A DNA stretch of 32,000 bases from Nostoc punctiforme PCC 73102 (GTDB lineage: Bacteria > Cyanobacteriota > Cyanobacteriia > Cyanobacteriales > Nostocaceae): positions 150,001-182,000 of the forward strand of contig NC_010631.1 of assembly GCF_000020025.1 (NCBI RefSeq), written 5' to 3'. Below the pieces are notes generated by a model that saw nothing but the letters and a program-made list of their open reading frames with translations, made no database searches and had not been told where the DNA came from. The position numbers and the translations under genes were made by a program. Of this stretch, positions 9,565-29,831 are shown piece by piece (position 1 is the first letter of the stretch; the number at the start of each line of letters is the position of its first letter).

Positions 9565-9595
9565 AGGGTGTGGGGTGTAGGGTGTAGGGTGTAGG
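9565..9595. repeat. Heptanucleotide tandem repeat (GGGTGTA-type)
   Basis: gagggtgtggggtgtagggtgtagggtgtagg. It is inverted relative to the tracts at 9849-9879 and 10239-10267. Confidence 0.9.
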
Positions 9596-9718: not shown

Positions 9719-9755
9719 GGGTATAGGGTATAGGGTGTAGGGTGTAGGGTGTGGG
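9719..9755. repeat. Heptanucleotide tandem repeat (GGGTATA/GGGTGTA-type)
   Basis: ggggtatagggtatagggtgtagggtgtagggtgtggg. Confidence 0.9.
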
Positions 9756-10238: not shown

Positions 10239-10267
10239 CTACACCCTACACCCCACACCCCACACCC
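10239..10267. repeat. Heptanucleotide tandem repeat (CCCTACA/CCCCACA-type)
   Basis: ctacaccctacaccccacaccccacaccc. It lies between the four-helix-bundle gene start and the recombinase stop. Confidence 0.9.
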
Positions 10268-10269
10268 TT

Positions 10270-12541: not shown

Positions 12542-12580
12542 GAAGTCGGAAGTCGGAGGTCGGAAGTCGGAGGTCGAAAG
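12542..12580. repeat. Heptanucleotide tandem repeat (GAAGTCG/GAGGTCG-type)
   Basis: gaagtcggaagtcggaggtcggaagtcggaggtcgaaag. It is the inverted partner of 13079-13111. Confidence 0.9.
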
Positions 12581-12594
12581 TAAAAATGTGTAAC

Positions 12595-13050
12595 TCAGAT
12601 GGGGGGTATTGCTTTCGAGTTCACAGTAGTTGTCAATTCTGAGTGCTTATCTCTTGCAACCACTATCTTCCTACTGCGAAGTTTATTGCCATTTAATCTC
12701 TCTTTAATTTTGCGTGTAGAGGCTACGAGTATCTTTACCATCTCATCAGCTTCCTGAAGTAAAGAAGAAAATTTAGCTTTTTCTACAACTTCAGACTCAA
12801 TTAAAATTTCTAGCCAATATTCAGTTTCGCGCGCTTCCTTTAAAGCGATTTCCATCTTATGCAAAAAGTCTTTATCAGACTGAGCCGAACGTGACTCCCG
12901 TATATTTGCACCAACACTTGTTCCAGAACGCAACAGTTGCTTTGATAGAGTGCGGCAAATACCTGGTTTTTCGTCCAGAAAGCTGCAAGCTTTGATGATT
13001 CTAATTGCAAACGCCTTACTCCTGTCAGCAATCCCAACATTTTTATCCAC
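12595..13050 (-). CDS. Four-helix-bundle protein (23S rRNA intervening-sequence protein / Avd-like family)
   Basis: 151 aa. KAFAIRIIKACSFL...LSKQLLRSGTSVGANIRESRSAQSDKDFLHKMEIALKEARETEYWLEIL is typical of the family. Confidence 0.85.
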   Translation of the reverse strand: MDKNVGIADRSKAFAIRIIKACSFLDEKPGICRTLSKQLLRSGTSVGANIRESRSAQSDKDFLHKMEIALKEARETEYWLEILIESEVVEKAKFSSLLQEADEMVKILVASTRKIKERLNGNKLRSRKIVVARDKHSELTTTVNSKAIPPI

Positions 13051-13078
13051 AACTGCACCTACTCCACTTCCATATTTT

Positions 13079-13111
13079 AACTTCCGACTTCCGACCTCCG
13101 ACCTCCGACTT
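13079..13111. repeat. Heptanucleotide tandem repeat (CTTCCGA/CCTCCGA-type)
   Basis: aacttccgacttccgacctccgacctccgactt, the reverse-complement type of 12542-12580. Together the two tracts bracket the 12595-13050 gene. Confidence 0.9.
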
Positions 13112-13218
13112 GAAAATAATATAGCACGTTAAACACAAAATAAGTAACCCTTATCTTTTATCCGATATAAACTACGATTAAAATACACGAACCCCAGTGT
13201 AGAGGAATAAAAAAGTTC

Positions 13219-13555
13219 TGTCGGTTTGCAGACTAAATGAAATTTGTGCGGACTAAGTGAAATTTTGTTGCAGACTAATTGAAAATCTGCTTGTGTAACC
13301 CTCATTCTTTCGTAATCCCAGAGCGTAGGCGTAGCCCGCCGTAGGCATCGCTACTTACAAAGTTTTGCTTCAAAGCCTTGTGCGGTAATAAATTGGGACG
13401 TTTTATGTCCATTTTGTGGAAAATTTCATTTAGTCTGCGAATTTAGGGGGAAAATTTCACTTAGTCCGCGAAAAAATTTCATTTAGTCTGCAACAAAGGT
13501 TCCTCAAACCCTTATTATTACGTTGAAAAAATTTCATTTAGTCTGCAAACGCACA
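13219..13555 (+). mobile_element. Non-autonomous mini Tn7-like element (MITE-like), copy 1
   Basis: Tips are TGTCGGTTTGCAGACTAAATGAAATTT and its inverted partner AAATTTCATTTAGTCTGCAAACGCACA (25 of 27 match). There are three direct 19-bp sites TGCrGACTAAnTGAAAwTy at 13227, 13247 and 13269, and four inverted copies at 13421, 13452, 13474 and 13529, which is the Tn7 3+4 end architecture. No ORF. The flanking duplication is GTTC, or AGTTC if the last A is counted as flank. Confidence 0.85.
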
Positions 13556-13649
13556 GTTCAACAATAAATAATAAAGTCCAACAATAAATAAAAAAGTTCT
13601 ACAATTTCTGGATGTGCATGGTCTGGGCAGATCCAGAAAGGTAAGCTTT

Positions 13650-14471
13650 ATGGCCAGAGGTAGGCAGGAGTGGACTCAAGCCAAGTTTGAACGCTACATC
13701 AAAGAAGGTCGCGGTCAAGGTAGTGGAGAGAAGTATAAGCCTTGGATCACTGTCTCCGATTTCTCCTCAATGGGCAGATCAGCAAGAAGCCCTGGTTGGA
13801 AGACCAATCGGGTGCATCATTTCTTATCAGACCATGAGCGGCGGCTGTTTTATCTGTTCGAGTGGTCAGATATTGTCGTAGATATCAGGGAGCAATTCCC
13901 CCTGCTCAACCTAGACTTATGTACGAGTATCGCTAGTGACATGGGAGTGAAATACCCCACTGACCCAGTTAGTGGTATACCTTACGTTTTAACTACTGAC
14001 TTCATGCTAACAGCCAATAAATCGGGTAAGTCAGTTCAAATTGCTCGAACAGTCAAACCATCTTCAGATTTGGAAAAAAAATCAGTAGCTGAGAAATTTG
14101 AGTTAGAAAGACGCTATTATGCTGACCAAAATATTGACTGGGGAATTGTAACAGAAAAAGAAATTCCCAGGCTTTTAGCTCTGAATATTGAGTGGATTCA
14201 TTCTTCCTACTCATTAGAAGCGACTACCGAAATGGCAGTTGAGGAACTACGAGGACTCTCAAGTATTTTAAAGTCTCGGCTCCAAAAAAGTAGTGCCACT
14301 ATCAACAAAGTGACAACAGCTTTAGACAGAGAAATGAATATAGAATCTGGGACATCACTAATGCTTTTTAAGCATCTGATTGCCACCAAAGAAATATTGA
14401 TGGATATGGAATCAACCAAAATATCTAGCTGTCCTTCAGTTCAAACAATTCAAAAAATTATTATTAAGTAA
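13650..14471 (+). CDS. tnsA: TnsA-like transposition endonuclease
   Basis: ORF 13614 (GTG)-14471; the ATG at 13650 (MARGRQEW) is preferred. YKPWITVSDFSSMGRS...VHHFLSDHERRLFYLFEWS...IREQFP...YVLTTDFML fits the TnsA N-terminal nuclease layout. It is the first gene after the element's end. Confidence 0.85.
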   Translation: MARGRQEWTQAKFERYIKEGRGQGSGEKYKPWITVSDFSSMGRSARSPGWKTNRVHHFLSDHERRLFYLFEWSDIVVDIREQFPLLNLDLCTSIASDMGVKYPTDPVSGIPYVLTTDFMLTANKSGKSVQIARTVKPSSDLEKKSVAEKFELERRYYADQNIDWGIVTEKEIPRLLALNIEWIHSSYSLEATTEMAVEELRGLSSILKSRLQKSSATINKVTTALDREMNIESGTSLMLFKHLIATKEILMDMESTKISSCPSVQTIQKIIIK

Positions 14472-14492
14472 TAGGGAATCAGGAAAAATTGA

Positions 14493-16721
14493 ATGAATAA
14501 TAATTTATTTGTCAACGACCTCATAGAATGGATAGACTCAGACCCTCCCAACTTGATTGAGAGAGTTCTGTGGATTGATTCTGGTTATAACATTGCCTTT
14601 GTTTTTGATATAAATGCCAAGAAAGGGTTTCCCGAAGCGAAAAAAGTTTCAGAAATAAGAGTTGCAATTCATACAGAACAAGCACTGAAGCTTAAACAAG
14701 ACCCTTGGGCAAGGCATTTGAGTGATGAAGATTTAACCAAGATACAAAAAGATTATAGAGAAAATGCTTGGTCACTAATTTCATCCCTGGTTGAAAAAGA
14801 ACCGGACATATACTATCGTTCGTCACGGGGTTCGCTTATCAAGCAGGTTGTTGAACAATATAACCAGGGGAGAAGTGAAAATAAATTAGTCGAAAAAACA
14901 GTTTATGAATATTTGAGAAGATTCTGGCAGAGAGGGAAAAATCAAAATGCGCTTTTACCTGACTATTCAAATTGTGGAGGTCTCGGAAAGCCCAAAAAAT
15001 GTGGAGAAAAGAAACGAGGAAGACCAAGAAAATATGCCCATGAACCAGAAATTGGTGTAGGGATTAATGTAACAGACGATGATCTGAAAATTTTTAGAAT
15101 TTCCATAGCCAAATTTTACAACAATGACAAACAGAATTCTTTGAGGACTACTTATAAATTAATGATTAGGGAATATTATTCATCAGATATTCGTTATGAC
15201 GAAAATGGGGTAAAAAAATCCCTATTAATTCCCCCCGAACTTAGGCCGACATTCACTCAATTGAAATATTGGTATGAAGTCGAACTATCAGATATCAAAA
15301 AAAGTATTACAGAACGAAAGGGAGCGAAAAGATTTGCTTTGGAGCATAGAGCAATTTTAGAAACATCTAAGATGGAAACCATTGGGCCCGGTTCTAGATA
15401 CCAAATTGATGCCACAATTGCAGATGTATATTTGGTTTCTAAATACAACTCTAACTGGATTATTGGCAGACCAGTAATTTATGTAATCATTGATGTTTTC
15501 AGCCGAATGATTGTGGGGGTTTATGTTGGTTTAGAGGGGCCTTCTTGGACAGGAGCAATGATGGCTCTAGCTAATGCAGCCACAGATAAAATACAGTTTT
15601 GTCAGGAATATGGCATTAATATTTCCTCTACAGAATGGCCTTGCCACCATCTGCCAGATGCAATTTTGGGCGACCGAGGCGAACTTGCAGGGATGGCAGT
15701 AGAGACATTAATCCCAAATCTCAATGTCCGAATTGAAAATGCTGCACCTTACCGTGCTGATTGGAAGGGTTTAGTAGAGAGGTACTTCCGTACAATTCAT
15801 GGTCATGTCAAACCATTTTTACCCGGTTATATAGACACAGATTTTAGACAAAGAGGGGGGCGAGACTATCGTCTTGATAGCAGAGTTAACATAGAGCAGT
15901 TTACTGAAATTATTATCCACTTAATTCGCTATCACAATAATCATCATTACCTGGCCAGTTATGATAGGGAAGAAATGATGATTACTGATAATGTAAATCC
16001 CATACCCATAGAATTATGGAAGTGGGGGATAGAAAATCGTTCTGGTAGACTCAGGACTTTTCCTGAAGATATAATCAAGCTAAATTTGATGCCAAATAAT
16101 AAAGCGACCATCACCGCTCGTGGCATCAAATTTAAGGGAATGTATTACAGTTGTGAGAAGGCATTGAAAGAATTCTGGTTTGAAAAAGCTAGAAGTAATT
16201 TGCTCTCCAAATCAGATAAATTATTAGATATTTCTTACGACTATCGCAAACCCAATTTTATCTATGTCCGCTCTCCTGATGGTAGAGATTTTGAGAAGTG
16301 CTTCCTTTTAGATCCAGAAGAGCGTTATTCTCAGAAAAATATACATGATATTGAATATTTACTCGCTTATGAAGAGTGGCTTTATCAGAAAAGTCAAGGC
16401 AATGAACTTCAAGCTTGTGTTGACTTAATAGCTGACATTGAAAGTGTTGTCAACAGAGCTAATGATTTAGCCTCTGTAACTGTTGATAATAGGGTAAGTG
16501 ATAACCAAAAAGTTGCTGGGATTAGGAGAAATAGAGCTTCAGAGAAGGCTAAACGACGCGACTATGAGGGGTTCGAGTTAGCTAAGAGAGAAACTCCTAT
16601 TCCTGAGACAGTTATGCCGAGCAAAAATTCTGACTCTAAAGAAAATAAATCATTACAGCCTGACCATTTGGAGCTTCTGAGAAAGAAGCGCCAGGAGCAT
16701 TTTAATGAACATAGAGAATGA
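14493..16721 (+). CDS. tnsB: TnsB-like DDE transposase
   Basis: 742 aa with an rve-type DDE core: YQIDATIADVYLV, VIYVIIDVFSRMIVGVYVG, ILGDRGELAG, and YRADWKGLVERYFRTIH (Mu/Tn7 family). Confidence 0.92.
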   Translation: MNNNLFVNDLIEWIDSDPPNLIERVLWIDSGYNIAFVFDINAKKGFPEAKKVSEIRVAIHTEQALKLKQDPWARHLSDEDLTKIQKDYRENAWSLISSLVEKEPDIYYRSSRGSLIKQVVEQYNQGRSENKLVEKTVYEYLRRFWQRGKNQNALLPDYSNCGGLGKPKKCGEKKRGRPRKYAHEPEIGVGINVTDDDLKIFRISIAKFYNNDKQNSLRTTYKLMIREYYSSDIRYDENGVKKSLLIPPELRPTFTQLKYWYEVELSDIKKSITERKGAKRFALEHRAILETSKMETIGPGSRYQIDATIADVYLVSKYNSNWIIGRPVIYVIIDVFSRMIVGVYVGLEGPSWTGAMMALANAATDKIQFCQEYGINISSTEWPCHHLPDAILGDRGELAGMAVETLIPNLNVRIENAAPYRADWKGLVERYFRTIHGHVKPFLPGYIDTDFRQRGGRDYRLDSRVNIEQFTEIIIHLIRYHNNHHYLASYDREEMMITDNVNPIPIELWKWGIENRSGRLRTFPEDIIKLNLMPNNKATITARGIKFKGMYYSCEKALKEFWFEKARSNLLSKSDKLLDISYDYRKPNFIYVRSPDGRDFEKCFLLDPEERYSQKNIHDIEYLLAYEEWLYQKSQGNELQACVDLIADIESVVNRANDLASVTVDNRVSDNQKVAGIRRNRASEKAKRRDYEGFELAKRETPIPETVMPSKNSDSKENKSLQPDHLELLRKKRQEHFNEHRE

Positions 16722-18381
16722 GTGGGAATGGGTTAAAATTCCCAACGGGGAATGGGCTGCTGTTGCTAAATACAGAGACCACAAGTTGTCTGAATATAAT
16801 ACAAATCCAATAATTCGCTCTCTTCCTCCTATCTTTTCTAGAGAGAAATTTGTTGAGTATGTGACACGACTTCCGACGTGCAAATCTTCAGAAAGAGAAC
16901 TAGAGCCTCAGTACAGATTTCACTGTATTGAGCGACTATCGAGATATTTTGACCCATTGAATAAAACCGTTGATTTACAACAGGTAGTTTGCGTATTAAT
17001 TATGCAAGGTTATCTGAGGCGAAATCCCTTGCAACCAGAATATGCACTGCGTAGCGGTCAAATTTATCAGGCGGTGCTTTCTGGAGGAGGTTTTAACTTA
17101 GAGGAGTATGTAGATGTTCCCACCTCGGCATCTGGGTTGACAATCATTGGGCCGTCAGGAATAGGCAAGACAACCAATCTCCTAAATATCCTCTCTTTAT
17201 ATCCCCAGGTGATTGTCCATCCAGCTCATAGTGTTTACCAAATTGTTTGGTTGAAAGTTGACTGTCCCCATGCCGGTTCTTTGAAGGGTTTGTGTATCGA
17301 CTTCTTCAGAGCTGTTGACAAATTACTCGGCACTAATAACTTCCAAAAATTTGGGGTAAAACGCAACTCTGAGGATTATATGCTGGCTCAAGTTGCCCAA
17401 ATTGCCCACACCCAACATTTAGGAGTTTTAGTTATCGATGAAATGCAAAATTTAGTAGCAGCCAGAAGAAATAGCTCCGAAATGTTGAATTTTTTGGTGA
17501 AAATGGACAATATTATTGGAGTCCCAGTAATTCGCGTTGGTACAAATGAGGCTTTCCCAATTCTTCAAGGTAATTTTAGAAATGCGAGAAGAGGTGTGGG
17601 AGAAGGGGGAGTAATTTGGGACAGGATGGAAAATAATCGGGAATGGAACTTTTTTATCGAAGGAATGTGGGAGTTTCAGTGGACAAAACAATATATACCG
17701 TTAACTGCAAATATTACCTCGGCTCTATATTATGAAAGCCAAGGAATTATTGATATCGTCATTAAACTCTATAAAATGGTGCAATGGAGAGCTATTGCTT
17801 TAGGGAGCGAAGTAATCACTGTTGACTTGATTCATGCTTGTGCTGCTGACGGTCTGCATCTAGTTAAACCAATGTTAGATGCTATTAGGTCTGGGGATGA
17901 GAAATGGATGATGAAATACAAAGATATTGCTCCATTGGACACAAATCTATACCGCAATAAGTGCTTAGATTCTCTTGAAGAAACAGATTTAGAAGAAGTG
18001 AGGAGATTAGCACGCTCATCACAGAGGATGGGTCACATATCAGCAACGCTACGTCATGTAATTATTGAACTGATTAATTTAGATGTTCCACCTGCTACTG
18101 CCAAGAGTTGTGCCGAAAAAGTTGTTACTCCTCATGGAGAAAATGCAGATAAAAAAGTGCTAATTAAAGAGGCTTATAAACTAGCTTTGCAATGCGGTAA
18201 TATTTCAACAGAGCCAGTTCAGCATCAAGAACGAAAAATAAAACTCCAACCGAAGTATCAGGAGAATGATATCCGAGTTATTGTTGAAAATGCGAAGAAA
18301 AATCAAACTCCAGCTTGTGAGGATTTGAAAGCTTTGGGGATTATTAAAGACCCACTCAAAGACTTTTTTATTGGTGAGTAG
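16705..18381 (+). CDS. tnsC: TnsC-like AAA+ ATPase
   Basis: 558 aa with Walker A IIGPSGIGKTT and Walker B LGVLVIDEMQNL. The start overlaps the tnsB stop by 17 nt. Confidence 0.9.
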   Translation: MNIENEWEWVKIPNGEWAAVAKYRDHKLSEYNTNPIIRSLPPIFSREKFVEYVTRLPTCKSSERELEPQYRFHCIERLSRYFDPLNKTVDLQQVVCVLIMQGYLRRNPLQPEYALRSGQIYQAVLSGGGFNLEEYVDVPTSASGLTIIGPSGIGKTTNLLNILSLYPQVIVHPAHSVYQIVWLKVDCPHAGSLKGLCIDFFRAVDKLLGTNNFQKFGVKRNSEDYMLAQVAQIAHTQHLGVLVIDEMQNLVAARRNSSEMLNFLVKMDNIIGVPVIRVGTNEAFPILQGNFRNARRGVGEGGVIWDRMENNREWNFFIEGMWEFQWTKQYIPLTANITSALYYESQGIIDIVIKLYKMVQWRAIALGSEVITVDLIHACAADGLHLVKPMLDAIRSGDEKWMMKYKDIAPLDTNLYRNKCLDSLEETDLEEVRRLARSSQRMGHISATLRHVIIELINLDVPPATAKSCAEKVVTPHGENADKKVLIKEAYKLALQCGNISTEPVQHQERKIKLQPKYQENDIRVIVENAKKNQTPACEDLKALGIIKDPLKDFFIGE

Positions 18382-18384
18382 TAT

Positions 18385-19722
18385 ATGCTCAGTTTTTTCC
18401 CTACGCCTTACCCAGATGAGATTTTATATAGCGTGTTTGCACGTTATCATGCCAGAAGTGGTAATATAAAGCCTGATGAAACGTTGCAAGAATTGTTCAA
18501 TTCCCGGAATATTATAGTTAGGCCGGACTTACCCTATAACTTAAGTTATTTAATTAAAAATCTTCCACTGCTCTCTCAACATACGTTAGAAAGTCTAATC
18601 CAAAAACATACACTGTACCCCATGTATGCAGTCTTTATGCCTGACAGCAAATCAGCTATTCTGGGTTACATGAAAGGAGAGTTGGGGACATATATTTATA
18701 GAGGAATAGCAAGCTCAGTTTATCTGCCAAAATATTTTAGGTTTTGTCCAAAATGCCTTTTTGAAAACTTGCATACATTTGGCGAGGCATATTGGCATCG
18801 ACTTCACCAAACACCTGGTGTTCTTGTCTGCACAATTCATGATGTTGTCTTAAACGATAGTATTGTACCTATCTGGAATAATCAGTGGTATCAAGTTGGT
18901 ATTGCTAGTTTGGAAAACTGTCCTATATCGAATGTAACGAAAAATTACAGTGAGTCCACTAAGGAGTTATTACGCCTAATTGCATCTGATATTGAGTGGT
19001 TAATGACCTGTGACTTCAAATCGCTTCCTTCTAAGGAATTAGATTGGTTTCATATCCAATATATAGTTTTATTGATTAAGAGGAATTTAGCGACTCTAGA
19101 CCGTCAGGTATATGAGCAAGGTTTACGACAGAAATTTTTGTCTTTTTATGGAAGTGAATTTCTTGAGGCTCTTGGTATAAATGTCAGTAACAATAACATA
19201 AATTTATTTAACATTTTTCGATTGCATTTGGAGGTTTTTGACCCGGTAATGCATCTGCTAATGATTAGATTTTTGAGGCATTCGCCTTCAACGTTTTTTG
19301 CTCGGAAATCTAAATATAAACCTTTTGGTAAGGGGCCTTGGCTTTGTCTAAATCCTGCTTGCGAACACTATCTCCATTCTGTGGTTACGAAGTTAGTGAT
19401 GCTTTTAAGCAATGATCTAGATTCGACCTATTCTTATATAAAAAATCCTATAGGGACTTTTGAGTGTGATTGCGGTTTTCAATATAGTAAGATTGGCGTG
19501 AATTTGACTAAAGTTGATAAGTTTCGATTTGAAAGAATCGTGACGTTTGGTCAATTATGGGAACAAAAGTATTTGGAATTAAATGTTGTTGATAGACTAA
19601 ATTTTCAGCAAGCTGCGTACAACCTTAGTTTTAATTATAGCAAGAGTCCAATGACTATGTTGCGTAAGCTAGAAGCTTTGTGGAAGTCTTTGAATGATAG
19701 TGTAGAAAAAGACGCCGGTTAA
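18385..19722 (+). CDS. tnsD: TnsD/TniQ-family target-selection protein
   Basis: 445 aa. The N-terminus FPTPYPDEILYSVFARYHARSG is the TniQ signature. A CCCH-type zinc finger follows (CPKC...C.IH). It starts 3 nt after the tnsC stop. Confidence 0.88.
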   Translation: MLSFFPTPYPDEILYSVFARYHARSGNIKPDETLQELFNSRNIIVRPDLPYNLSYLIKNLPLLSQHTLESLIQKHTLYPMYAVFMPDSKSAILGYMKGELGTYIYRGIASSVYLPKYFRFCPKCLFENLHTFGEAYWHRLHQTPGVLVCTIHDVVLNDSIVPIWNNQWYQVGIASLENCPISNVTKNYSESTKELLRLIASDIEWLMTCDFKSLPSKELDWFHIQYIVLLIKRNLATLDRQVYEQGLRQKFLSFYGSEFLEALGINVSNNNINLFNIFRLHLEVFDPVMHLLMIRFLRHSPSTFFARKSKYKPFGKGPWLCLNPACEHYLHSVVTKLVMLLSNDLDSTYSYIKNPIGTFECDCGFQYSKIGVNLTKVDKFRFERIVTFGQLWEQKYLELNVVDRLNFQQAAYNLSFNYSKSPMTMLRKLEALWKSLNDSVEKDAG

Positions 19723-19730
19723 TCAGACTC

Positions 19731-19904
19731 TATATTGTTGAACTTTTTTATTCAACTTTCTCGACCTGCGCTCTTCTACATTGGTAAACTGAACTCAACT
19801 GAGGACAGTTATTGTTCAACTTTATTTTTCTGGCATCTGTGATGGATAACCAAAAATTAAGGGTTGTAGCTCTTGAAATTGTTGAACTTTATTATTCCTC
19901 TACA
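19731..19904. repeat. Element A tniQ-distal end with repeated putative TnsB-binding sites
   Basis: ATTGTTsAACTTT-type motifs occur near 19736, 19811 and 19878, and the region ends in CCTCTACA. Confidence 0.8.
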
Positions 19905-19976
19905 CTTGATATACATGTGACTGTAACTGTGACTTACACCATAAGTTGTCCGTAACGGACAGCTTATGGTTAAAAA

Positions 19977-20684
19977 TTATCCAAAGTTTGTAGGCGGCAA
20001 AAATTGCGAGGGTTCTTTAGCAACCAGATCCTCGACATCATCGAACCACATAAACTGCCAAGTCAGTCTGTCTCTGCGATGAGAGGAAACATCTCCTATC
20101 AACAGATGCTGCCATGAATTTTCTGAGTTTTCAGCCACTACCTGTTCATCAAGGTTTTGGTTGATTCTAAAACCACCTAACCATAGATGACAGCTTGAGC
20201 AATATCCTGGACGAGAACATCTAGTCAACGGTGGAAACTGCTTGTCACAGTGAGGACACTGCTCAATCAGAGTTTGATGTTCGTGGTGGGGGCAAAATTT
20301 GATTGTGTTGACTAACCACAGCAGTGGATTGTAGATTATTCGATTCTGGGTACGCCAACTGGCGTAACACAATGGACACCAAGCTTGGTACAAGCGCAGA
20401 AAACTAAACTCAAAGGTCAAACTTGCCCACTTTAGGGGTGACAAATTAGCTAAATCTCGACGTAAAGTTAACTCCTCAAGAACCTGAATTAGAGTTGTAG
20501 CAAAAATACCTCTGATTTCATTTGCAGATGCTAAAGAGTGGTGAATTCCAAAAAAATTATTAATGATGTCTATGGGACTTGTTTGAGACATTTTTTGCCC
20601 CATCAAGGGAAGAATCTGAGACAAAATTAATTGTTCGGTAGTAGTAGAATGATGTTCAGCAAGACGAGCTACATACCCGCTCAA
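19977..20684 (-). pseudogene. tniQ: tniQ remnant of element B (N- and C-terminally truncated)
   Basis: It aligns to residues ~40-250 of the element-C TniQ (YVARLAEHHS..., WCPLCY, CPHH...CPHCDKQF, GYCSSCHLWLGG). The ~270 C-terminal residues are missing, and the stop lies 49 bp from the element tip. Confidence 0.8.
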
Positions 20685-21024
20685 GCTTTCTACGTAGATT
20701 GTACCAATACCAATAGGCTTCTGCTGGAATTGCTTCTATTCCTGCAACTGGAATTTGGCAGGTATTGTAACTCATGGATGTTAATGCCTCTTCCAATAAC
20801 AGTTTTTCGGCTCGCAGCCTTAAAGTCGTTTTGCCCACACCTGCCGGTCCAACAACAAACAGAACACAAATATCTGTTTGTTGTTGAAGATTGATTAATA
20901 AAGCATCTAAAGCTTGCCTTAAACGTAAATGTCCAACTGTAATGTTATGAAAATAGTCCAACCGCTCTGTTGAGGATTTTGTTAGTAATTCTTGTGGAAA
21001 TGGACGTTGGAAATTCATTACCAC
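20656..21024 (-). pseudogene. tnsC: tnsC remnant of element B (first ~100 codons only)
   Basis: It matches the element-C TnsC up to VAGIEAIP, including Walker A GPAGVGKTTL. The reading then continues, in another frame, into tniQ sequence (PIGIGTIYVESLSGYVARL). This indicates an internal deletion of roughly 0.9 kb. Confidence 0.85.
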
Positions 21025-23740
21025 AGCTCCTGTTGAGAGTACGGTTGGATTCGCCTGGGATTAATTTCTTGAGCCTCTAATTTATTTGGCAGTCTTAGTT
21101 CTTCTGTAATATTATTTTTAATATCGGCTAAATCTTCTTTAACAACAGATTGTGCTTGTTTCACTATTTTAGAAGACACAATTTGACGAACTCCAGTTGC
21201 TGCCAAATCTCGTAATCGTTGTATTTGTAAAGTCTCTTGAGCTTCGGCTGATTCTAGATACTGTGCTAAGTCCTTAGCCTTAATTGTGACTTTCTGGTTG
21301 TACTGCTTTTTCTGCTGACGTATTTCGATGCTAGCAAGCCGAATTTCTCGTTCAGAATGTCCTTGTAACGATGAATAATGTTGTGAAATACAACGCACCC
21401 AAGCATTTTTGACATAGGCATAAGCCGTACCCACATCCCAGGGATCATATCTAATAGGTACTTGGGTTCCTTCAACTTCAGGATGGAGAAAAGAATCATC
21501 TATTGACCAGTAGTAAATATGGTTAACTTTTACCCCAAGCTTTGGTATAACTTTGGCGCTTCCTTTTGGAGTTGATGGCAAAGTAAAAATCTGAAAATTT
21601 TCATCATTAATAATTCTTTGACCAAAGCGCATTCCACTTTGAGTTAAGCCCTTTTCAAATGCAACACATGGTGATTGTCCTAGTGCAGGATGTTCTCTCT
21701 GGTCATAAATTACATAAATATATTCACAAAAATACTCATATATTTCCGGTAACGTCCATACAGCTTGTGCCTTTGGATTATTCGTCTTATTCACTAAGCG
21801 AATTTGCTTTGTAATTTGGGTGTTTCCTTTCAGGTTGTAGAAGAATTCAGTATGACTGGTGCCAAAAAAACGTTCAATTATTGAACCAAATCTAGGACTA
21901 GCAACAGGGCGTTGTTTCTTTATACAACCAAATGCTGCTAAAAGAGTTTCAAAGTAAATACTGCCAAATTCTACACCGTTATCTACTACCAAAGTTTCTG
22001 GTAACCGCCCTAGTCTCTGTACGCAAATTCGTACACCATCATGCAGGAGCGATAGGACGGCGGGTCAAAAGTCAAATAGATAGCTAAAATACGCCGGGAA
22101 AAAGCATCAATCAAAACGGTTGCCCAAGGTCTACCCAAACAACATCCTGTCCTTTGGCAAACTAACTCAATATCTAACTCGGTATGGTCAATGTGACAAA
22201 TTTCAAAGGGACGACTTCCGTGGCAAGGTGTCGAGAACGTTAATTCATGATAAAACGAGCTTTTTTGGTAAGCTGCTCGATTTCCTTGCCTCTTACGAGT
22301 TTGTCTATGATCTGCTCTACTGTTGATCCGCTTGTAAAACGTAGTACGGCTGGGGCAAGGGTCTGTTTTTCCCGCTTTTTCCCATTCTCTTGCCAGAATA
22401 CCGTAAGTTGTCAGTTTATTTCTCTGTTTAAAATTCTCGTAATGCTGCTCAATAATTTTATCGATGAACTCCCAAGTTTGATCTGAAAATCGCTCAACAC
22501 GGTTTCCTTTGTCTTTACGATTTGGCAACAAACCAATGTAACCCCAACCATAGGTTTCCTCTGCGGAATGATATTTGGCTTTCCATCTGCGAATTGTTCG
22601 CTCAGACACAGGACTATTGGTTGGCGGATCTTTATGCAGATATGGTTCAATGATTTTCTGACGGTAGTTAGCTACGGCTAAGTCTTCTGGGCTAGCGCAT
22701 TTTAGCTGTTCCCAAATTTGAGTTGATTTTACTCCTTGAGCTTCAATGCCAGTAATTTCTTTTTGTGAAATTAGTGTTTCAAAGTCTGCATGGCTTAACC
22801 CAATTAGATGATTTTCACCTTGCAAAACAATTTTTTTCTCTCCAATCTGAATTACAGATAAACTTTTTCCATCCCAGAACACCGTTGCACCAACCACCAC
22901 ATCAATCTGTTGCCCCTTATCGAGGGTGGCAGCAGCCTTTTTAGACATGATTAAGTTATAAGCTTCTGCTACCTGCTGGCTACTAAACAGATGAACTTTT
23001 TCTGGTTCACTCAACCCTATGCCTTTCAAATCTACATATAACTGCTTTGTTGCAATCAAGGCATAAATATCATCTACCCAACTGGTACTTGTTGATGAGA
23101 GTAATTGTTTCAGGGTCATCCCCGGATTAGCTGTAACAGATTCAATAATTTTTGTCCTTGCTTCTGGATTAACTATATTCTCTTGGCTCAAGTAAACTCT
23201 GAGAAACTGATGGTTGCGGTAAGCAATCCAGTTTATTTCCTGATCTGTACGAAGGTGATAGTAAAGCCCCAATGATTGAACTTTAGTTTCTACCGGTGGA
23301 GCCTGCCATTTACCATTTTCGTTTTGTTGATACCTTGTGGGTTGTTTGTGAGTGAGTGTTTTGAGACGTTCGCTAGTTTTCCATTCTTCAAACCCTGCAC
23401 AGTTATGCCGAATCACTAAGAAATCAGGAATATGACTCGTCACCACCCTACGCCCGCTTTTCGACTCAAATGATATGCTTAGACGAACTGGTTGGTCATA
23501 GTACTCCAGAACATCTTCGTCGTTTTCGTACTTTACGATCGCAGGCAATTCTACTTTGTGGGACTCAAACTGAATCGTTTTTCCCATTTTGTGGCTTGGG
23601 TAGCTACCACAAACATTTTTCGTCCCGCCACCTACTTTCCTTACAGGCTCCGAACAACGGATTTGCTGTACAAATTCTTTTGTCGTCTCTGGTAAACCGA
23701 GCCGATGACACCATTGTTCAAATTCTTGGTCACTGAGCAT
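21018..23740 (-). pseudogene. tnsB: tnsAB-type transposase gene of element B, disrupted by a 1-nt frameshift
   Basis: ORFs 22010-23740 and 21018-21992 are colinear with the element-C protein. At about 22033 the frame breaks: ...CMMV then, in the -1 frame, RICVQRLGRLPETLVVDNGVEFG. Compared with element C (gtattaaga versus gtgtacgaa), one T appears to be missing. Confidence 0.85.
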
Positions 23741-24026
23741 ACAGAAATCTGTAACTTTCGGACTGTTTATGCTTGAATAATGAACTTTCGGTCACTTTAT
23801 CATTTCAAAACACTACTTTTACTGTTCGGCTACTAAACGTAATAATCCGCTTTTGGACTTCTATTTGTCACTTAAAGGATATTGTGGCCGTTTTTAAACC
23901 ATAAAGTGGCCGCAGTCATCTGAACTGGTAAGTATAAATATTTATATCAATAAAAGACTGTTTAACTGGCGAAAGCCTAGATTTGTGGTAAGAGCTTGTT
24001 GCGGCTTTAAAAGCTTGGGGGCCAAT

Positions 24027-26636
24027 ATGTTGAGCGACCAAGAGTTTAATGATTGGTGTCGCGGCGTAAATTTACCACAAGAGGCTAGGCAATTAATTTC
24101 CCAAATCCGTGCCTCTGAACCAATTCGGCGAGTCAAAAGCAGTGGTATAAATGTCCGGGGCGACTACGCCAGTCGCAAAATGGGAAAAACTATTCAATTT
24201 GAGTCCCATAAAATTGAATTGCCAGGTGTAGAGGAGTACGAAGAAGACGCAGATGTACTCGAATACTACGACCAAGCATATCAAATTACTCTAGAATTCC
24301 CCTCAAGCAGTGGGGAAATAATCAAAGCTTCGCATATACCAGACTTTTTCGTAATTCGGAAGCGGAGTGCAGGTTTTGAAGAGTGGAAACCAGAATCAAG
24401 ATTAGAAAAATTAGCAGCTAAACAATCACAACGTTATATGCGTTCAGAAGATGGGCAGTGGTTAAACCTGCCAGCAGTTGCTTATGCAGAAAAATTAGGA
24501 CTGTATTACCGAATTCGGTTAGATACAGAAATTGATTGGATTAAATACAGAAATCGACTATTTCTCAAAGCCTATACTACTGAAGATTACCAAATTGACC
24601 CAGAAATAGCTGAAAATTTGGTGAAGTTAATTAGCTTAAATCCGGGCATAAGTTATTGGGAAATGATTCATACTCAACAGAGCAATCCTGATGACATAAA
24701 TGCTTTAATAGCTACAAAAAAAATTTACATTAATTTGAGTGCCGCACCCTTAGCAGAGCCAGAAAAAGTACAGCTTTTCCGTGACCAAGAAATCGCGGTA
24801 GCTTATGTACAAATGATAAAATCGCAACCGAATAATGGAACGATTCTGAATATTTTAGATGTTAAACCCAATCAACTGGAACGTAAAACTCATAATCAAG
24901 TAAAAATGTCTCCAAAAGCAATGGAGCGTTTTTTGAGAGCTAGTCCTGAAGACTTGGCAGAAGCTAACCGAAGATATGAAGTAATTGAACCTTATCTTAA
25001 TGACAGTTATAGAGATAAAGAAACTGTTCCACAACGTACTATTCGCAGATGGAAGGCTAAGTTTATAGCAGCACAAAAGGCGTACAAATGTGGTTATATT
25101 GGGCTGCTAAATAACTCTAATGCTAGAGGCAATCGCTTACCCAGAATTTCTCAATCGTCTCAAGATTTCATTGACAAAATAATTGAAGAATATTATGAAA
25201 CTTTTCAACAAAGAAGCAAACTAGCTGTTTATGGAATTCTAGCAAGAGAATGGGAGAAAGCAGGTCTAACAGATAAGCTGCCTAGCTACGCTACATTTTG
25301 TTCTAGAATTCAACATCGTTCTGGTTATAGGCAAACAAAAAAACGTAAGGGAAACAGAGCAGCTTATCAACAATCTTTATTGTATTGGGAGTTGAAATTA
25401 ACCACACCATGTCATGGCGACCGTCCATTTGAGATAGCACACATTGACCATACGCAACTGGATATTGAGTTAGTATGCTCCCGAACAGGTTATCTTCTTG
25501 GTAGACCTTGGGCAACTCTGTTAATCGATGCTTACAGCCGACGTATTCTCGCAGTTTACCTAACTTTTGACGAGCCAAGCTACCGTAGTTGCATGATGGT
25601 ATTAAGAATCTGCGTACAGCGATTTGAGAAATTACCAGAGACAATAGTTGTTGACGGTGGGACAGAATTTAGTAGTACATACTTTGAGACCTTGTTAGCG
25701 GCTTTTGAATGTACCAAAAAGCAGCGACCAGCTGCGAAAGCCAGATTTGGTTCAATTATTGAACGTATTTTTGGAACTACAAATACAGAGTTTTTTTATA
25801 ATCTTAGAGGCAACACTCAAATTACTAAGAATGTCCGCCAAGTCACGAAATCAAATAATCCCAAAAATCAAGCTGTTTGGACACTAGATCAACTCTACGA
25901 AAACTTTTGTTCATATTGTTACGAATTCTATGATTGCAGAGAACATCCAACATTAGGACAAAGCCCACGTCAAACTTTTATGTCAGGGCTAAATTCAAGT
26001 GGTTATCGCCCTCAGAAACAGATTATTTATGATGATAATTTTAAGATTTTTACCTTACCTTCTACACCTAAAGGAACTGCAAAAGTTCAACCAAGTAGAG
26101 GCGTGAAAATTAATTATCTCTACTATTGGTCAATTGATGATTCGTTCATAAGACCAGAAATTGAAGGAACTAATGTACCTATTCGTTACGACCCTTTTGA
26201 TATGGGGACTGCTTATGCTTACGTTAAGGGACGTTGGATACGCTGTATTTCTGAACATTACAAATCCTTCCAAAATCGTTCCGAAAAAGAAGTGAACATA
26301 GCCAGCACACAATTACGTCGAAAAAGGCAGAAACACGCTCAAAGAATTACTCTATCTGCCCAAGAAAAAGCTACATATTTAGAAGGAACTGAAGCCCAAG
26401 AAACTTTGTTATTACAACGCTTACATGATTTAGCACAACAAGATATTTGGGTTTTAATTGAAAAAAGCTCAGTTATTGAAAGTAAATTAAGTAAACACAA
26501 TTATTCAGCTAATGTTCAAGATGTAGATAAAAATATTTTGGCAGGTTCAGAAAGCATTAAAAAGCCAAAATCATCAGCAAAAAAATTAATAGATTTAACC
26601 AAAATAGAAGCTTACAATACAGAGGAGCTATGGTAA
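24027..26636 (+). CDS. tnsB: Transposase with TnsA-like nuclease N-terminal domain fused to a TnsB-like DDE domain
   Basis: I take the start at ATG 24027 (MLSDQEF, as in the element-B homolog). The N-terminal region QFESHKIELP...VLEYYDQ...SHIPDFFVIRKRSAGFEEWK has an E...PDF...ExK layout. The DDE core is AHIDHTQLD, LLIDAYSRRILAVYLTF, VVDGGTEFSS. Confidence 0.9.
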   Translation: MLSDQEFNDWCRGVNLPQEARQLISQIRASEPIRRVKSSGINVRGDYASRKMGKTIQFESHKIELPGVEEYEEDADVLEYYDQAYQITLEFPSSSGEIIKASHIPDFFVIRKRSAGFEEWKPESRLEKLAAKQSQRYMRSEDGQWLNLPAVAYAEKLGLYYRIRLDTEIDWIKYRNRLFLKAYTTEDYQIDPEIAENLVKLISLNPGISYWEMIHTQQSNPDDINALIATKKIYINLSAAPLAEPEKVQLFRDQEIAVAYVQMIKSQPNNGTILNILDVKPNQLERKTHNQVKMSPKAMERFLRASPEDLAEANRRYEVIEPYLNDSYRDKETVPQRTIRRWKAKFIAAQKAYKCGYIGLLNNSNARGNRLPRISQSSQDFIDKIIEEYYETFQQRSKLAVYGILAREWEKAGLTDKLPSYATFCSRIQHRSGYRQTKKRKGNRAAYQQSLLYWELKLTTPCHGDRPFEIAHIDHTQLDIELVCSRTGYLLGRPWATLLIDAYSRRILAVYLTFDEPSYRSCMMVLRICVQRFEKLPETIVVDGGTEFSSTYFETLLAAFECTKKQRPAAKARFGSIIERIFGTTNTEFFYNLRGNTQITKNVRQVTKSNNPKNQAVWTLDQLYENFCSYCYEFYDCREHPTLGQSPRQTFMSGLNSSGYRPQKQIIYDDNFKIFTLPSTPKGTAKVQPSRGVKINYLYYWSIDDSFIRPEIEGTNVPIRYDPFDMGTAYAYVKGRWIRCISEHYKSFQNRSEKEVNIASTQLRRKRQKHAQRITLSAQEKATYLEGTEAQETLLLQRLHDLAQQDIWVLIEKSSVIESKLSKHNYSANVQDVDKNILAGSESIKKPKSSAKKLIDLTKIEAYNTEELW

Positions 26637-27769
26637 AAATTCAGTCGCACTCTTTTCCAGAAGAACTTCTCTTACAGCCGAACGAAATTAAAACTGATTA
26701 TTTCAAAAGTATCACTATTCCACATCAAAGGCTCAAACAAGCCTTAGATACTTTATTAATTAATATTCTGGAGCCAGCTGACACTTTAGTATTTTTAGTT
26801 TTTGGTGTGACTGGTGTAGGAAAAACAACCTTACGCTTGCGTCTGGAAAATCTGCTAAATTACGAATTTCTCCCCTCATTACGCCAAAATCCTGGTCAAA
26901 TTGCTGTTGCTGGTATTGAAGCTATTCCAACAGAACAAGGAAAGTTTAGCTATAAAGATTATTACACTCGCGCCCTAGAATCCCTTCAGGAAGTTTTGAT
27001 TGAATACAAAATTGATTATGAAATTCCTCACGGTGAGGTAAAGGATTTGGGGTTGCTAAATCGGGCTTACCGCCAAGATTCGCCCGCATTACGCCGAGCA
27101 ATGGAAAAAGCATTTCGTTATCGTCAGGTAAAAGCTTTTACTGTAGACGAGGCACAGCATTTATTTATGATGGCAGGCGGACACCAGATGTTACAGCAAA
27201 TGAACTGGATTAAGTCTATTGCTAATCTTACTGGTACAGTACATATTTTATTTGGAACTTATGAACTGCTTAACTGTCCTACCTTGAATGGGCAAATAGG
27301 GCGGCGTAGCGAAGATATTCACCTGTTACCTTACCAAGCTGATAACCCAGAAGATATTGCTGAATTTATTAGAGTAATTAGAACTTTTCAACGCCACATT
27401 CCGCTTGTACAAGAACCAAAATTAGAACAACACTATGAGTATCTTTTTTCTGGCTCAGTTGGTTGTGTGGGGCTATTGAAGAATTGGTTAACTCGTTCTT
27501 TGAGAGTTGCCTATTCTGAAGAAGCTCGGACTCTTAATAGCAAACATCTTAAATTAGGTGCTTTTTCTGCATCTCGTATCAACAAAATTAAGGAAGAAGC
27601 ACAACAGGGATTTAAACGCTTTCAAGAAGAATCCAGTTTTTTTGAGCGGCAATATTCAACAGAACATGGAATAAAAATGCCAGCCAAAAATTCCCTACTC
27701 AAAAAAGGTCGTGTTGGACAAAGAAAACCTAAAAGAGATGATGTAGGGGTAAATTCAGATGATGACTAA
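26630..27769 (+). CDS. tnsC: TnsC/TniB-like AAA+ ATPase
   Basis: 379 aa with Walker A FGVTGVGKTTL and Walker B AFTVDEAQHL. The start overlaps the upstream stop (ATGGTAA). Confidence 0.9.
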   Translation: MVKIQSHSFPEELLLQPNEIKTDYFKSITIPHQRLKQALDTLLINILEPADTLVFLVFGVTGVGKTTLRLRLENLLNYEFLPSLRQNPGQIAVAGIEAIPTEQGKFSYKDYYTRALESLQEVLIEYKIDYEIPHGEVKDLGLLNRAYRQDSPALRRAMEKAFRYRQVKAFTVDEAQHLFMMAGGHQMLQQMNWIKSIANLTGTVHILFGTYELLNCPTLNGQIGRRSEDIHLLPYQADNPEDIAEFIRVIRTFQRHIPLVQEPKLEQHYEYLFSGSVGCVGLLKNWLTRSLRVAYSEEARTLNSKHLKLGAFSASRINKIKEEAQQGFKRFQEESSFFERQYSTEHGIKMPAKNSLLKKGRVGQRKPKRDDVGVNSDDD

Positions 27770-29345
27770 CATGGCGGTTAACGATGAATTGTGGCTCAAA
27801 GACCCAGAATTTACTCCCAGTCCTAGCCGGTTGTTTCATCTGGAACCGATTGGACTTGGTACTTGTTATGTTGAAAGTCTGACTAGCTATGTTGCTCGTC
27901 TAGCCGCAGCTCATAGCGTATTGCCTGGAACTTTATTGGCTAGAGAGATAAAACCAATAGTTGGGCATAACCATACTACCAATCCCTTGAATTCTAAAAG
28001 TATCGTAAGTTTGTATGGACAAGCTTCTGTAAAAGCTTTAAACGGAACACAAATTGGAGCTAAACAACTGGTTTTTGCTCTAGAAATATTGACAAAACGT
28101 ACTGACTTACAGTTTTTGACAATGCTACCTTGGGCAAAAGTCTTCCCAGTTTTGGGATTGCTCAAGCATTCTCATGCTTGGTGTCCTTATTGCTATCAAG
28201 ACTGGTTAAATAATCAACAAGTCATTTATTCACCTCTGCTGTGGGCTTTGAAACCAGCTAACATTTGTCCCATCCATTATCGATTTTTAGAATCAAAATG
28301 TCCTCACTGTGACCTTGAATTTTTACACCTGTGGCATAACTCACGACCTGGATTTTGTCTGAAATGTGGTGGTTGGTTGGGGATGAACTATGAAGTATCT
28401 TTGCCAGATAAGAGATTGTTCGAGGAGATACCCAATTTACAGCAAGAGATTTGGATAGTTAAGACTTTAGGAGATTTAATTGCTCAAGCTCCTGAATTTC
28501 CTTGTCCACCTCCAAGAGAGACTATTAAAACAATCCTAGAAGCTTACGTCTATCAATATACTCAAGGTAATGTTTCCGCTTTTGGTCGTTGGCTTGGGTT
28601 ATCGAGATATGAAATTCTACATTGGTATTCAGGTGTAGCCATCCCAAATTTAGATAAACTTTTGAAAATCTGCTACGCCTTATCAACTAATCTTGTCGAT
28701 TTTCTTCAACTTAAAATACTACCTCTTACTCTTAAGCAGCTAGTTTCTCTACCTGCTCCTAAACAGAAAAAATTATCATCACAGTCTGCTTTAGTTACTT
28801 CAAATAGTAGTCCTAAGTGCGAACGAGTTATTCAGGCGATGCAACTAGCTCAAGAAGAAGAACCACCTCCTTCTTTAACTCAATTAGCTGTTCGTTTAGG
28901 ATTCAAAACTCCTAGTAGTTTAACTGCTTGCTCAAAATCTTTATCAGCATCTTTGGCTACTAGATATAGTGAATATCAACAGCAGCTAAGATTTTTACAC
29001 ATCAGAGACATACTTGAATTAGCTTTGTTTAGCGACGAGTATCCACCACCTTCTCTAAGAAAAATAGCTAAGAGAACTGGTATTGGTTTGGCTACTTTCT
29101 ACCACTATTGCCCTATTGTGTGCCATGCTATTTCTTTACGCTATAAAGATTACCGCAAATTCGTCCATAAACTAGCTATTGAGCAAGGCTGTCGAGAAGT
29201 ACGCCAACTCGCTTCAGTACTTCATGCACAAGGCATTACCCCTACTGCTAAAAATCTCAGAAAATTTATGCCTCATCCCTCTTTGCTGTGGCAGGCTGAG
29301 GTAATTGATGTTTTAAGGCAGATAAGACTGGATCTTTCACAGTAA
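27759..29345 (+). CDS. tniQ: TniQ/TnsD-family target-selection protein
   Basis: 528 aa. TniQ N-terminus (ESLTSYVARLAAAHS), zinc-finger cysteines (WCPYCY, CPIH, CPHCD, CLKCGGW) and a long helical C-terminal half. It overlaps the tnsC stop by 11 nt. Confidence 0.88.
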   Translation: MMTNMAVNDELWLKDPEFTPSPSRLFHLEPIGLGTCYVESLTSYVARLAAAHSVLPGTLLAREIKPIVGHNHTTNPLNSKSIVSLYGQASVKALNGTQIGAKQLVFALEILTKRTDLQFLTMLPWAKVFPVLGLLKHSHAWCPYCYQDWLNNQQVIYSPLLWALKPANICPIHYRFLESKCPHCDLEFLHLWHNSRPGFCLKCGGWLGMNYEVSLPDKRLFEEIPNLQQEIWIVKTLGDLIAQAPEFPCPPPRETIKTILEAYVYQYTQGNVSAFGRWLGLSRYEILHWYSGVAIPNLDKLLKICYALSTNLVDFLQLKILPLTLKQLVSLPAPKQKKLSSQSALVTSNSSPKCERVIQAMQLAQEEEPPPSLTQLAVRLGFKTPSSLTACSKSLSASLATRYSEYQQQLRFLHIRDILELALFSDEYPPPSLRKIAKRTGIGLATFYHYCPIVCHAISLRYKDYRKFVHKLAIEQGCREVRQLASVLHAQGITPTAKNLRKFMPHPSLLWQAEVIDVLRQIRLDLSQ

Positions 29346-29494
29346 ATCTTATTTATTCGCCTTTCTCTAAGGTTTTACTACTGCGGCCACTTTATGCTTT
29401 AAAAACGGCCACAATATCCTTTAAGTGACACTATTGCGGACAACTTATGGTTTCAAAAACGGACAGCTTATGGTGTAAGTCACAACCAACATGC

Positions 29495-29831
29495 TGTCGG
29501 TTTGCAGACTAAATGAAATTTGTGCGGACTAAGTGAAATTTTGTTGCAGACTAATTGAAAATCTGCTTGTGTAACCCTCATTCTTTCGTAATCCCAGAGC
29601 GTAGGCGTAGCCCGCCGTAGGCATCGCTACTTACAAAGTTTTGCTTCAAAGCCTTGTGCGGTAATAAATTGGGACGTTTTATGTCCATTTTGTGGAAAAT
29701 TTCATTTAGTCTGCGAATTTAGGGGGAAAATTTCACTTAGTCCGCGAAAAAATTTCATTTAGTCTGCAACAAAGGTTCCTCAAACCCTTATTATTACGTT
29801 GAAAAAATTTCATTTAGTCTGCAAACGCACA
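29495..29831 (+). mobile_element. Non-autonomous mini Tn7-like element (MITE-like), copy 2
   Basis: By eye it is identical over all 337 bp to 13219-13555 and in the same orientation. It is flanked by ATGC on both sides. It lies 10 bp outside the tip of element B. Confidence 0.85.

Follow-up and report, generated by a model that had tools for sequence, protein, structure and literature searches.

A fused tnsAB gene in an intact, cargo-less Tn7-like element of Nostoc punctiforme PCC 73102 nested in the end of a decayed relative

Introduction

Tn7-like transposons in which TnsA and TnsB form one polypeptide are already established, with a published clade, a cryo-EM structure and a test of a catalytic mutant. 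A survey of 2,163 cyanobacterial genomes distinguished three Tn7-like clades, namely those with no TnsA, with a separate TnsA and with a fused TnsAB (Hsieh & Peters 2022, PMC9881144), and the fused clade includes the type I-B2 and I-D CRISPR-associated transposons (CASTs), Tn5469 and Tn5541 (PMC9881144). Here we analyzed a fused gene of this kind in Nostoc punctiforme PCC 73102. The stretch of DNA that was analyzed, hereafter the window, comprises 32,000 nucleotides of contig NC_010631.1 (150,001 to 182,000), and the region in question, positions 24027-24560 of the window, contains the codons for residues 1-178 of the TnsAB protein (869 aa, 24027-26636) of a Tn7-like element called C. Further Tn7-like elements of the window are called A and B. 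We regard it as very probable that the region is the start of a natural tnsAB fusion in an intact, cargo-less element, which belongs to the cyanobacterial TnsAB clade and whose mechanism can be predicted by homology.

Several described systems are relevant to this locus. PmcCAST (Tn7744) is a type I-B2 CAST of the Peltigera membranacea cyanobiont 210A with TnsAB, TnsC and TnsD, for which cryo-EM structures have been deposited (PDB 9BW1, 8V32 and 8FCU); 9BW1 is its TnsABCD transpososome (PMC12585508). For McCAST (Tn7575), a type I-D CAST, cointegrates were 0/150 with TnsAB and 149/150 with TnsAB(D106A) (PMC9881144). Tn5469 of Fremyella diplosiphon and Tn5541 are cargo-less members of the clade that have tnsAB and tnsC, and in the case of Tn5469 also one tniQ, and according to published descriptions they have no defined attachment site (PMC9881144, PMC11406308). 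A CRISPR-array-targeting family (Allocoleopsis; PMC11837452) has a fused TnsAB, TnsC, a single TnsD-like protein of shortened length and no cargo, and it lies beside CRISPR repeats. In Tn7 of E. coli, TnsA and TnsB are separate polypeptides, and TnsA is recruited via the C-terminus of TnsC.

Results and Discussion

TnsA-like domain of the element C transposase

Element C lies on the plus strand at 23866-29430 and has the following features.

23866-23916, plus strand: right-end terminal inverted repeat, TGTCACTTAAAGG..., with the CTATT target duplication just before it (23861-23865)
24027-26636, plus strand: tnsAB, 869 aa, an unbroken TnsA-TnsB fusion with the DDE triad D474, D543 and E579; match to chain M of 9BW1 with E 1.7e-270
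24027-24842, plus strand: TnsA-like N-terminal domain of TnsAB (residues 1-272), from Pfam PF08722, AlphaFold2, Foldseek and invariant residues
26630-27769, plus strand: tnsC, AAA+ regulator, 379 aa, with an RKPKRD motif at the C-terminal tail; Pfam AAA_22/TniB
27759-29345, plus strand: tniQ/tnsD-like target selector, 528 aa; Pfam TniQ
29380-29430, plus strand: left-end terminal inverted repeat, ...CCTTTAAGTGACA, with the CTATT target duplication just after it (29431-29435)

The mechanical open reading frame (ORF) of tnsAB begins at GTG 23985, and the start supported by homologs is ATG 24027. We placed the start of the 869-aa protein at this ATG because the residues MLSDQEF open both the homologs and the protein of element B.

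An initial annotation of the window had read the order E...PDF...ExK, followed by a DDE core, as the layout of a TnsA-type nuclease joined to a transposase. The peptide strings that it had quoted are present in C, that is, QFESHKIELP at residues 57-66, VLEYYDQ at residues 77-83 and SHIPDFFVIRKRSAGFEEWK at residues 102-121, and in element B these motifs recur, with identical residue numbers, in the minus-strand ORF 23740-22010. In C, the catalytic codons are those of E64 (24216-24218), D106 (24342-24344) and E119-W-K121 (24381-24389, of which K121 is 24387-24389).

Profile searches and the predicted fold both agree with this reading. PF08722 (TnsA-like N) matched C with 30.1 bits (E 7.4e-7) and B with 37.4 bits (E 3.7e-9), the gathering cut-off being 26.5. 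The PF08721 profile (TnsA C-terminal) was passed by B with 26.4 bits at a cut-off of 23.4, and B also matched the NCBIfam entry 'TnsA-like heteromeric transposase endonuclease subunit'. The AlphaFold2 model of residues 1-272 of C, for which the input was 26 aligned homologs, had a predicted local distance difference test score (pLDDT) of 92.4 and a predicted template modelling score (pTM) of 0.84. When this model was compared with the PDB by Foldseek, the top match was 9bw1_M ('TnsABCD-DNA transpososome'; E 4e-27, template modelling score 0.85), and the Tn7 TnsA crystal structures 1T0F (E 1.8e-7) and 1F1Z (E 1.3e-6) were matched with a probability of 1.00. The model aligns along the full length of 1t0f. 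The weaker Foldseek matches were MarR-type winged helices, which is consistent with the C-terminal domain of TnsA. Thus, the nuclease that had been placed in the first 170 residues or so is present, but the TnsA-like part is larger than this and amounts to about 270 residues, with a nuclease core at about residues 45-165 and a winged-helix part at about residues 168-265.

The residues of the motif are strictly conserved. E59, E64, E72, E79, D82, D106, E119 and K121 showed no variation in alignments of 115 full-length homologs. We paired the residues of C with those of Tn7 TnsA by a gapless alignment anchored on VLDIREQ/VLEYYDQ and by the columns of hhalign, which was used for pairing columns only, the significance being taken from Pfam and Foldseek. 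The Tn7 TnsA motif E63-x7-E71...D114...Q130-x-K132 pairs with E64-x7-E72...D106...E119-x-K121 of C. In Tn7 TnsA, E63 stands in SDLE-x7-E71, D114 in STDF and K132 in QVK, and D106 of C stands in IPDF. The predicted secondary structure of C has the PD-(D/E)xK layout, that is, a helix from E64, a strand followed by D106, and the ExK on the second strand after that. In the TnsB half of C, the DDE triad is invariant in 114 homologs, and a Mu-transposase C domain is present as well.

These findings bear on the idea that the likeness of E...PDF...ExK arose by chance and that the N-terminal part is an unrelated DNA-binding extension on a TnsB-like transposase. This idea could draw on the lack of BLAST-level identity to Tn7 TnsA and on a weak hhalign score against that single sequence (given below), but Pfam scores above the gathering threshold, the Foldseek probability of 1.00 to both Tn7 TnsA crystals and the invariance of the motif residues already refute it, and we give it practically no chance. 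The profile search and structure prediction which the initial annotation had proposed as a check gave significant similarity to TnsA, and the motif residues, whose lack of conservation would have told against it, are conserved among homologs.

Ends and mobility of element C

Element C is an intact element of 5,565 bp without cargo, and it contains exactly three genes in the order tnsAB-tnsC-tniQ, which is common to all its close relatives. Its terminal inverted repeat is 51 nt long and 98% complementary, with TGTCAC...GTGACA ends and two repeats in each end module, and CTATT forms a perfect 5-bp duplication on both flanks. The right-end boundary of C is the exact point at which the similarity to Nostoc punctiforme FACHB-252 breaks off. 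Copies of C with 97-98% identity are found in other Nostoc genomes (FACHB-252, TH1S01 and ChiQUE01b), where the flanks differ and the similarity begins exactly at TGTCAC. The intact ORFs, the near-perfect inverted repeats, the intact target duplication and the near-identical copies in differing flanks therefore support the view that C is active now or was so recently. When the window copy was compared with that of N. punctiforme FACHB-252, their right-end flanks had no conserved attachment (att) sequence in common.

Relationship of element C to described systems

The full TnsAB of C had 2,810 database relatives at E<=1e-10. Among the best 120 of these, nearly all are 840-920 aa long with PF08722 and rve annotated, and several relatives carry the NCBI name 'TnsA endonuclease N-terminal domain-containing protein'. 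With the N-terminal 272 aa as the query, 1,757 clusters at 50% identity were obtained, of which 321 were at E<=1e-30; of the best 150 clusters, 86 have at least 800 aa and the match at their own N-terminus. In the sequence search of the PDB, the N-terminal 270 aa of C matched chain M of 9BW1 with E 8.5e-68.

A fusion in one gene could also be an artefact, in which adjacent tnsA and tnsB genes were merged by a frameshift of sequencing or assembly or by ORF calling. Nothing specific speaks for this, although element B shows that frameshifts happen at this locus. The same uninterrupted architecture, about 850-920 aa in length, is found in more than 100 independent homologs from many assemblies, and the chain of 898 aa in 9BW1 was purified and structurally solved as a single chain, so we consider an artefact extremely improbable.

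Compared with PmcCAST, C likewise has TnsA and TnsB in a single chain (42% identical over the Foldseek N-terminal alignment) and TGT/ACA ends. The TnsC of C matches PmcCAST TnsC with E 2.6e-90, and the tails are aligned, RKPKRD corresponding to RxxxRD; this RxxxRD motif of TnsC has been reported at the TnsA-TnsB junction (PMC13598128). Residues 9-321 of the C TniQ match PmcCAST TnsD with E 1.1e-79, and the C-terminal region of the C TniQ diverges after about residue 321. Unlike PmcCAST, C is devoid of Cascade genes, a CRISPR array, a second TniQ and cargo, and no tRNA gene adjoins the place where it is inserted.

McCAST belongs to the same clade as C, and the catalytic aspartate is numbered D106 in both. 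The mutation of putative catalytic residues that the initial annotation had suggested is the very experiment done on this relative with D106A. It showed cut-and-paste movement by one polypeptide in McCAST, with a shift from simple insertions to cointegrates in the mutant. By its published description, McCAST differs from C in having a type I-D Cascade, a TnsD that targets tRNA, and cargo. With Tn7, C shares the catalytic modules (E/D/K and DDE), TnsC, TniQ-family partners and the 5-bp duplication, but the TnsA and TnsB parts of C are covalently joined; element A, not C, is of the split Tn7 type. The Allocoleopsis family resembles C in its gene set, but the TniQ of C is long (528 aa).

We also considered C as a member of each targeted class. 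A CAST was ruled out, as the window has no cas genes, CRISPR-like repeats or Rfam matches. A tRNA-targeting TnsD element was ruled out as well, since the 32 kb of the window contain no tRNA gene and C lies inside an end of B. The architecture is similar to that of the CRISPR-array-targeting family, but there is no CRISPR array in the window. With no cas genes or CRISPR array and no adjoining tRNA gene, C thus belongs neither to the CASTs nor to the elements that use tRNA sites. It has the traits of the TnsAB clade, that is, a single ORF for TnsA and TnsB with tnsC and a gene of the tniQ family downstream, close kinship in sequence, and TGT/ACA ends with a 5-bp duplication.

Within the clade, C most resembles the cargo-less elements of the Tn5469 type. 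Tn5469 is reportedly about 4.9 kb long with a transposase of 909 aa, as against 5,565 bp and 869 aa for C, so they are not the same element. Kahn and Schaefer are said to have called this 909-aa TnpA, in 1995, a composite of TnsA-like and TnsB-like parts.

An element with a TnsAB of about 50% identity was observed in Floridaenema flaviceps (L011, 3859-15375). Between its right-end terminus and tnsAB, this element contains additional ORFs (218, 90, 634 and 447 aa) spanning about 6 kb, which is unusual as a place for cargo or accessory genes.

Predicted transposition reaction

From these relationships, the reaction of C can be pictured as follows. The TnsB part, through D474, D543 and E579, would bind the repeated sites in the 51-nt ends, cut the 3' strands and join them to the target, while the tethered TnsA domain, through E64, D106 and K121, would cut the 5' strands and so release the element fully from the donor. 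Complete excision of this kind would result in cut-and-paste transposition with a 5-bp duplication. TnsC, as an AAA+ protein, would bridge the transposase and the TniQ-family target selector, and its RKPKRD tail would, as in PmcCAST, be placed where TnsA and TnsB join.

A different possibility is that the N-terminal domain is a relic of TnsA that serves as a structural or TnsC-docking module, and that C transposes replicatively through cointegrates like the type V-K elements, which lack TnsA. PmcCAST, a fusion of roughly 50% identity, gives substantial cointegrates, and in the deposited 9BW1 chain Ala takes the place of E64 of C. However, C has E64, D106, E119 and K121, and their invariance in the 115 homologs points to selection for catalysis. 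In McCAST, the fused nuclease is active, as judged from the cointegrate counts of the wild type and D106A (PMC9881144). Furthermore, the perfect 5-bp duplication round a single copy of C is expected of a simple insertion or a resolved cointegrate. We therefore judge that a relic is unlikely, though clearly less so than an artefact or a chance likeness.

Chain M of 9BW1 reads FESHRVALP; C and the 115 homologs, including the close PmcCAST relative P0057 (...HRVELP), have Glu there, corresponding to E63 of Tn7 TnsA. If this Ala is natural, it could explain the cointegrates of PmcCAST, and if it is engineered, it is trivial.

In judging the reading of C as a nuclease-transposase fusion with cut-and-paste movement, several points weigh against it. 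PF08721 was not significant for C, so that only the fold match covers the C-terminal part of its TnsA region. Compared by hhalign with Tn7 TnsA as a single sequence, the fusion N-terminal alignment gave a weak result (E 0.025, probability 1.9%), and the pairing of residues between C and Tn7 comes from hhalign, motif spacing and predicted secondary structure rather than from a superposed active site. The TnsA-TnsB linker of C is shorter by about 47 residues, which PmcCAST, B and most homologs of about 900 aa possess. According to a preprint, the PmcCAST fusion still gives about 16% cointegrates (bioRxiv 10.64898/2026.05.29.728539, citing Saito 2021), and the presence of a TnsA domain alone is therefore no proof of clean excision. 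For element C, the identity of the domains, the fold, the conservation of residues, the intact ends with their target duplication and the mobility (near-identical copies in differing contexts) are established, and its nuclease activity and cut-and-paste outcome are predicted by homology.

The missing linker can be located in the PDB alignment, in which residues 5-268 of C correspond to 3-268 of 9BW1 and residues 287-818 to 334-861, with the gap near 24830-24890 (about residues 268-287 of C). TnsAB proteins of the C type are about 860-870 aa long and are short of this inter-domain segment.

Element B as the host of element C

The initial annotation had given B and C a transposase of 870 aa each. 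The two elements do not lie side by side, as C is nested in the right end of B. The features of B are as follows.

19928-19953, plus strand: left-end terminus of B, TGTGACTTACACCATAAG..., 26 nt, 96% complementary to 29459-29484
19977-21024, minus strand: remnants of tnsC (122 aa, 21024-20656) and tniQ (235 aa, 20684-19977)
21018-21992, minus strand: 3' ORF of tnsAB, 324 aa, in the other frame, with the second D, the E and the Mu-transposase C domain
22010-23740, minus strand: 5' ORF of tnsAB, 576 aa, comprising a TnsA-like domain that looks intact (22925-23740) and the first aspartate of the DDE triad; PF08722 and PF08721
29431-29484, plus strand: right-end terminal 54 bp of B with two transposase-binding repeats, split from the remaining B end (23741-23865) by C

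Element B is on the minus strand. Its termini lie at 19928 and 29484, and C is therefore within B, 54 bp from the right-end terminus and directly after the two terminal binding repeats. Without C, B measures 3,992 bp, and in the segments where its DNA aligns with that of C, the identity is about 65-78%.

The size of 870 aa is right for C (869 aa) and wrong for B, in which a 1-nt deletion within 22010-22030 (minus strand), between the first and second DDE aspartates, divides tnsAB into the two ORFs. At this point B reads ...ATGATGGTGTACGA..., where C has M-M-V-L-R-I, and the downstream frame of B goes on with VRICVQRLGRLPETLVVDNGVEF. Upstream of the frameshift, the TnsA-like domain of B keeps every conserved residue. 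No target duplication of B was found, the flanks being GTAAC and ACCAA. Since tnsAB is frameshifted and tnsC and tniQ are remnants, B is a dead element, a decayed relative of the intact C, and the proposed fusion exists as an intact gene in C only, the B copy being a frameshifted pseudogene.

When tblastn was performed over the whole window with Tn7 TnsA and the N-terminus of C, it detected two N-terminal TnsA-like domains, those of B and C, and one free-standing tnsA, that of element A at 13650-14387. Thus, as had been claimed, B and C have no separate tnsA.

Insertion into the ends of related elements

The position of C within B belongs to a recurrent pattern, in which a resident terminus TGTNAYTT... 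is followed, 50-54 bp on, by the co-oriented terminus of another element. Nine junctions in eight sequences show it.

Window: 54 bp; target site duplication CTATT on both sides
Nostocaceae metagenome-assembled genome (L007): 53 bp; target site duplication ACTGC on both sides
Nostoc ChiQUE01b (L006): 52 bp
Rhizonema (L008): 54 bp
Anabaena catenula (L010): 53 bp
Metagenome (L137): 53 bp
Metagenome (L050): 50 bp; the C-like end is the host
Metagenome (L081): 54 and 51 bp; triple nesting ('Russian doll')

The 5-bp duplications are intact in both of the nested cases in which the two sides are visible. The host sequences all differ, and the nesting events are therefore independent. By chance, the 8-mer terminus motif would be expected in a 5-bp window at about 6e-4 per flank. 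In addition, part of a host module is present in L013, and the junction in L076 is at 20 bp. As exceptions, two or three C-like copies, among them L005 and L136, lie in flanks that do not resemble ends. The 15-nt terminus pattern used to scan metagenomes was too short, so that chance matches accounted for nearly all of the 120 loci; only L050, L075, L076, L081 and L129 looked genuine.

From this pattern we tentatively suggest, at somewhat less than even chances, that cargo-less elements of the C type and some relatives home into the ends of other TnsAB-clade transposons, 50-54 bp inside them and immediately beyond their two terminal transposase-binding repeats ('end-hunting'). Such homing could come about through recognition by the single TniQ/TnsD-like protein, through cross-binding of TnsAB or through TnsC drawn to transposase-bent DNA. 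We did not find the nested-end pattern mentioned in PMC9881144, in Benler et al. or in the telomeric-transposon preprint, and it is the only part of the present findings that might be new.

Element A and small repeats

Element A, which had been described as keeping tnsA and tnsB split, does have them as separate genes by Pfam. The features of this part of the window are as follows.

13198-19904, plus strand: element A, canonical heteromeric Tn7-like element with inverted ends TGTAGAGGAATAA...
13614/13650-14471, plus strand: tnsA of A, by Pfam
14493-16721, plus strand: tnsB of A, by Pfam
16705-18381, plus strand: tnsC of A, by Pfam
18385-19722, plus strand: tnsD of A, by Pfam
13219-13555, plus strand: non-autonomous element of 337 bp, 21 bp inside the right end of A, with ends of the Tn7 kind (TGT...ACA; TTGCAGACTAAATGAAA repeated 3+4 times)

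The TnsA of A matches PF08721 and PF08722, is 41% identical to Tn7 TnsA and has E 3.7e-48 to PDB 1F1Z. Element A is a Tn7-like element of an unrelated lineage with separate TnsA and TnsB. Despite clear inverted ends, no target duplication of A was found, the flanks being CCCAG and CTTGA (13193-13218, 19884-19909). As A has no matching duplication and the small element breaks up its right end, it is probably immobile now. The left ends of A and B are only 23 bp apart.

The 337-bp copy at 13219-13555 splits the first transposase-binding site of A. A second copy, identical in 337 of 337 positions, lies at 29495-29831, 10 bp outside the right end of B. The repeats of this small element bear no relation to those at the ends of A, B and C, its flanking duplication is either 4 bp (GTTC; ATGC) or an imperfect 5 bp, and no autonomous partner was found in the window.

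Arrays of heptamer repeats, GAAGTCG / ACTTCCG and GGGTGTA / CCCTACA, occur as inverted pairs at 12542-12593, 13063-13111, 9565-9595, 9719-9752, 9849-9880 and 10239-10268. They flank small ORFs at 12595-13050 and 9762-10184, whose products look alike by eye. These bracketed ORFs may be another small mobile or recombining cassette.

Significance

TnsA-TnsB fusions are already being engineered for genome editing, and the presence of a fusion as such matters little. Element C offers a minimal three-gene system for predicted cut-and-paste transposition, with a linker shorter than that of PmcCAST. Moreover, a single 16-kb stretch contains an element with split TnsA and TnsB, an intact fused TnsAB and a decayed fused one, and it makes a tidy natural illustration. 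End-hunting, if true, could matter more than the fusion. It would be the opposite of the target immunity of Tn7, it would be a new mode of target selection for the Tn7 family, and it would bear on how related elements evade one another's target immunity.

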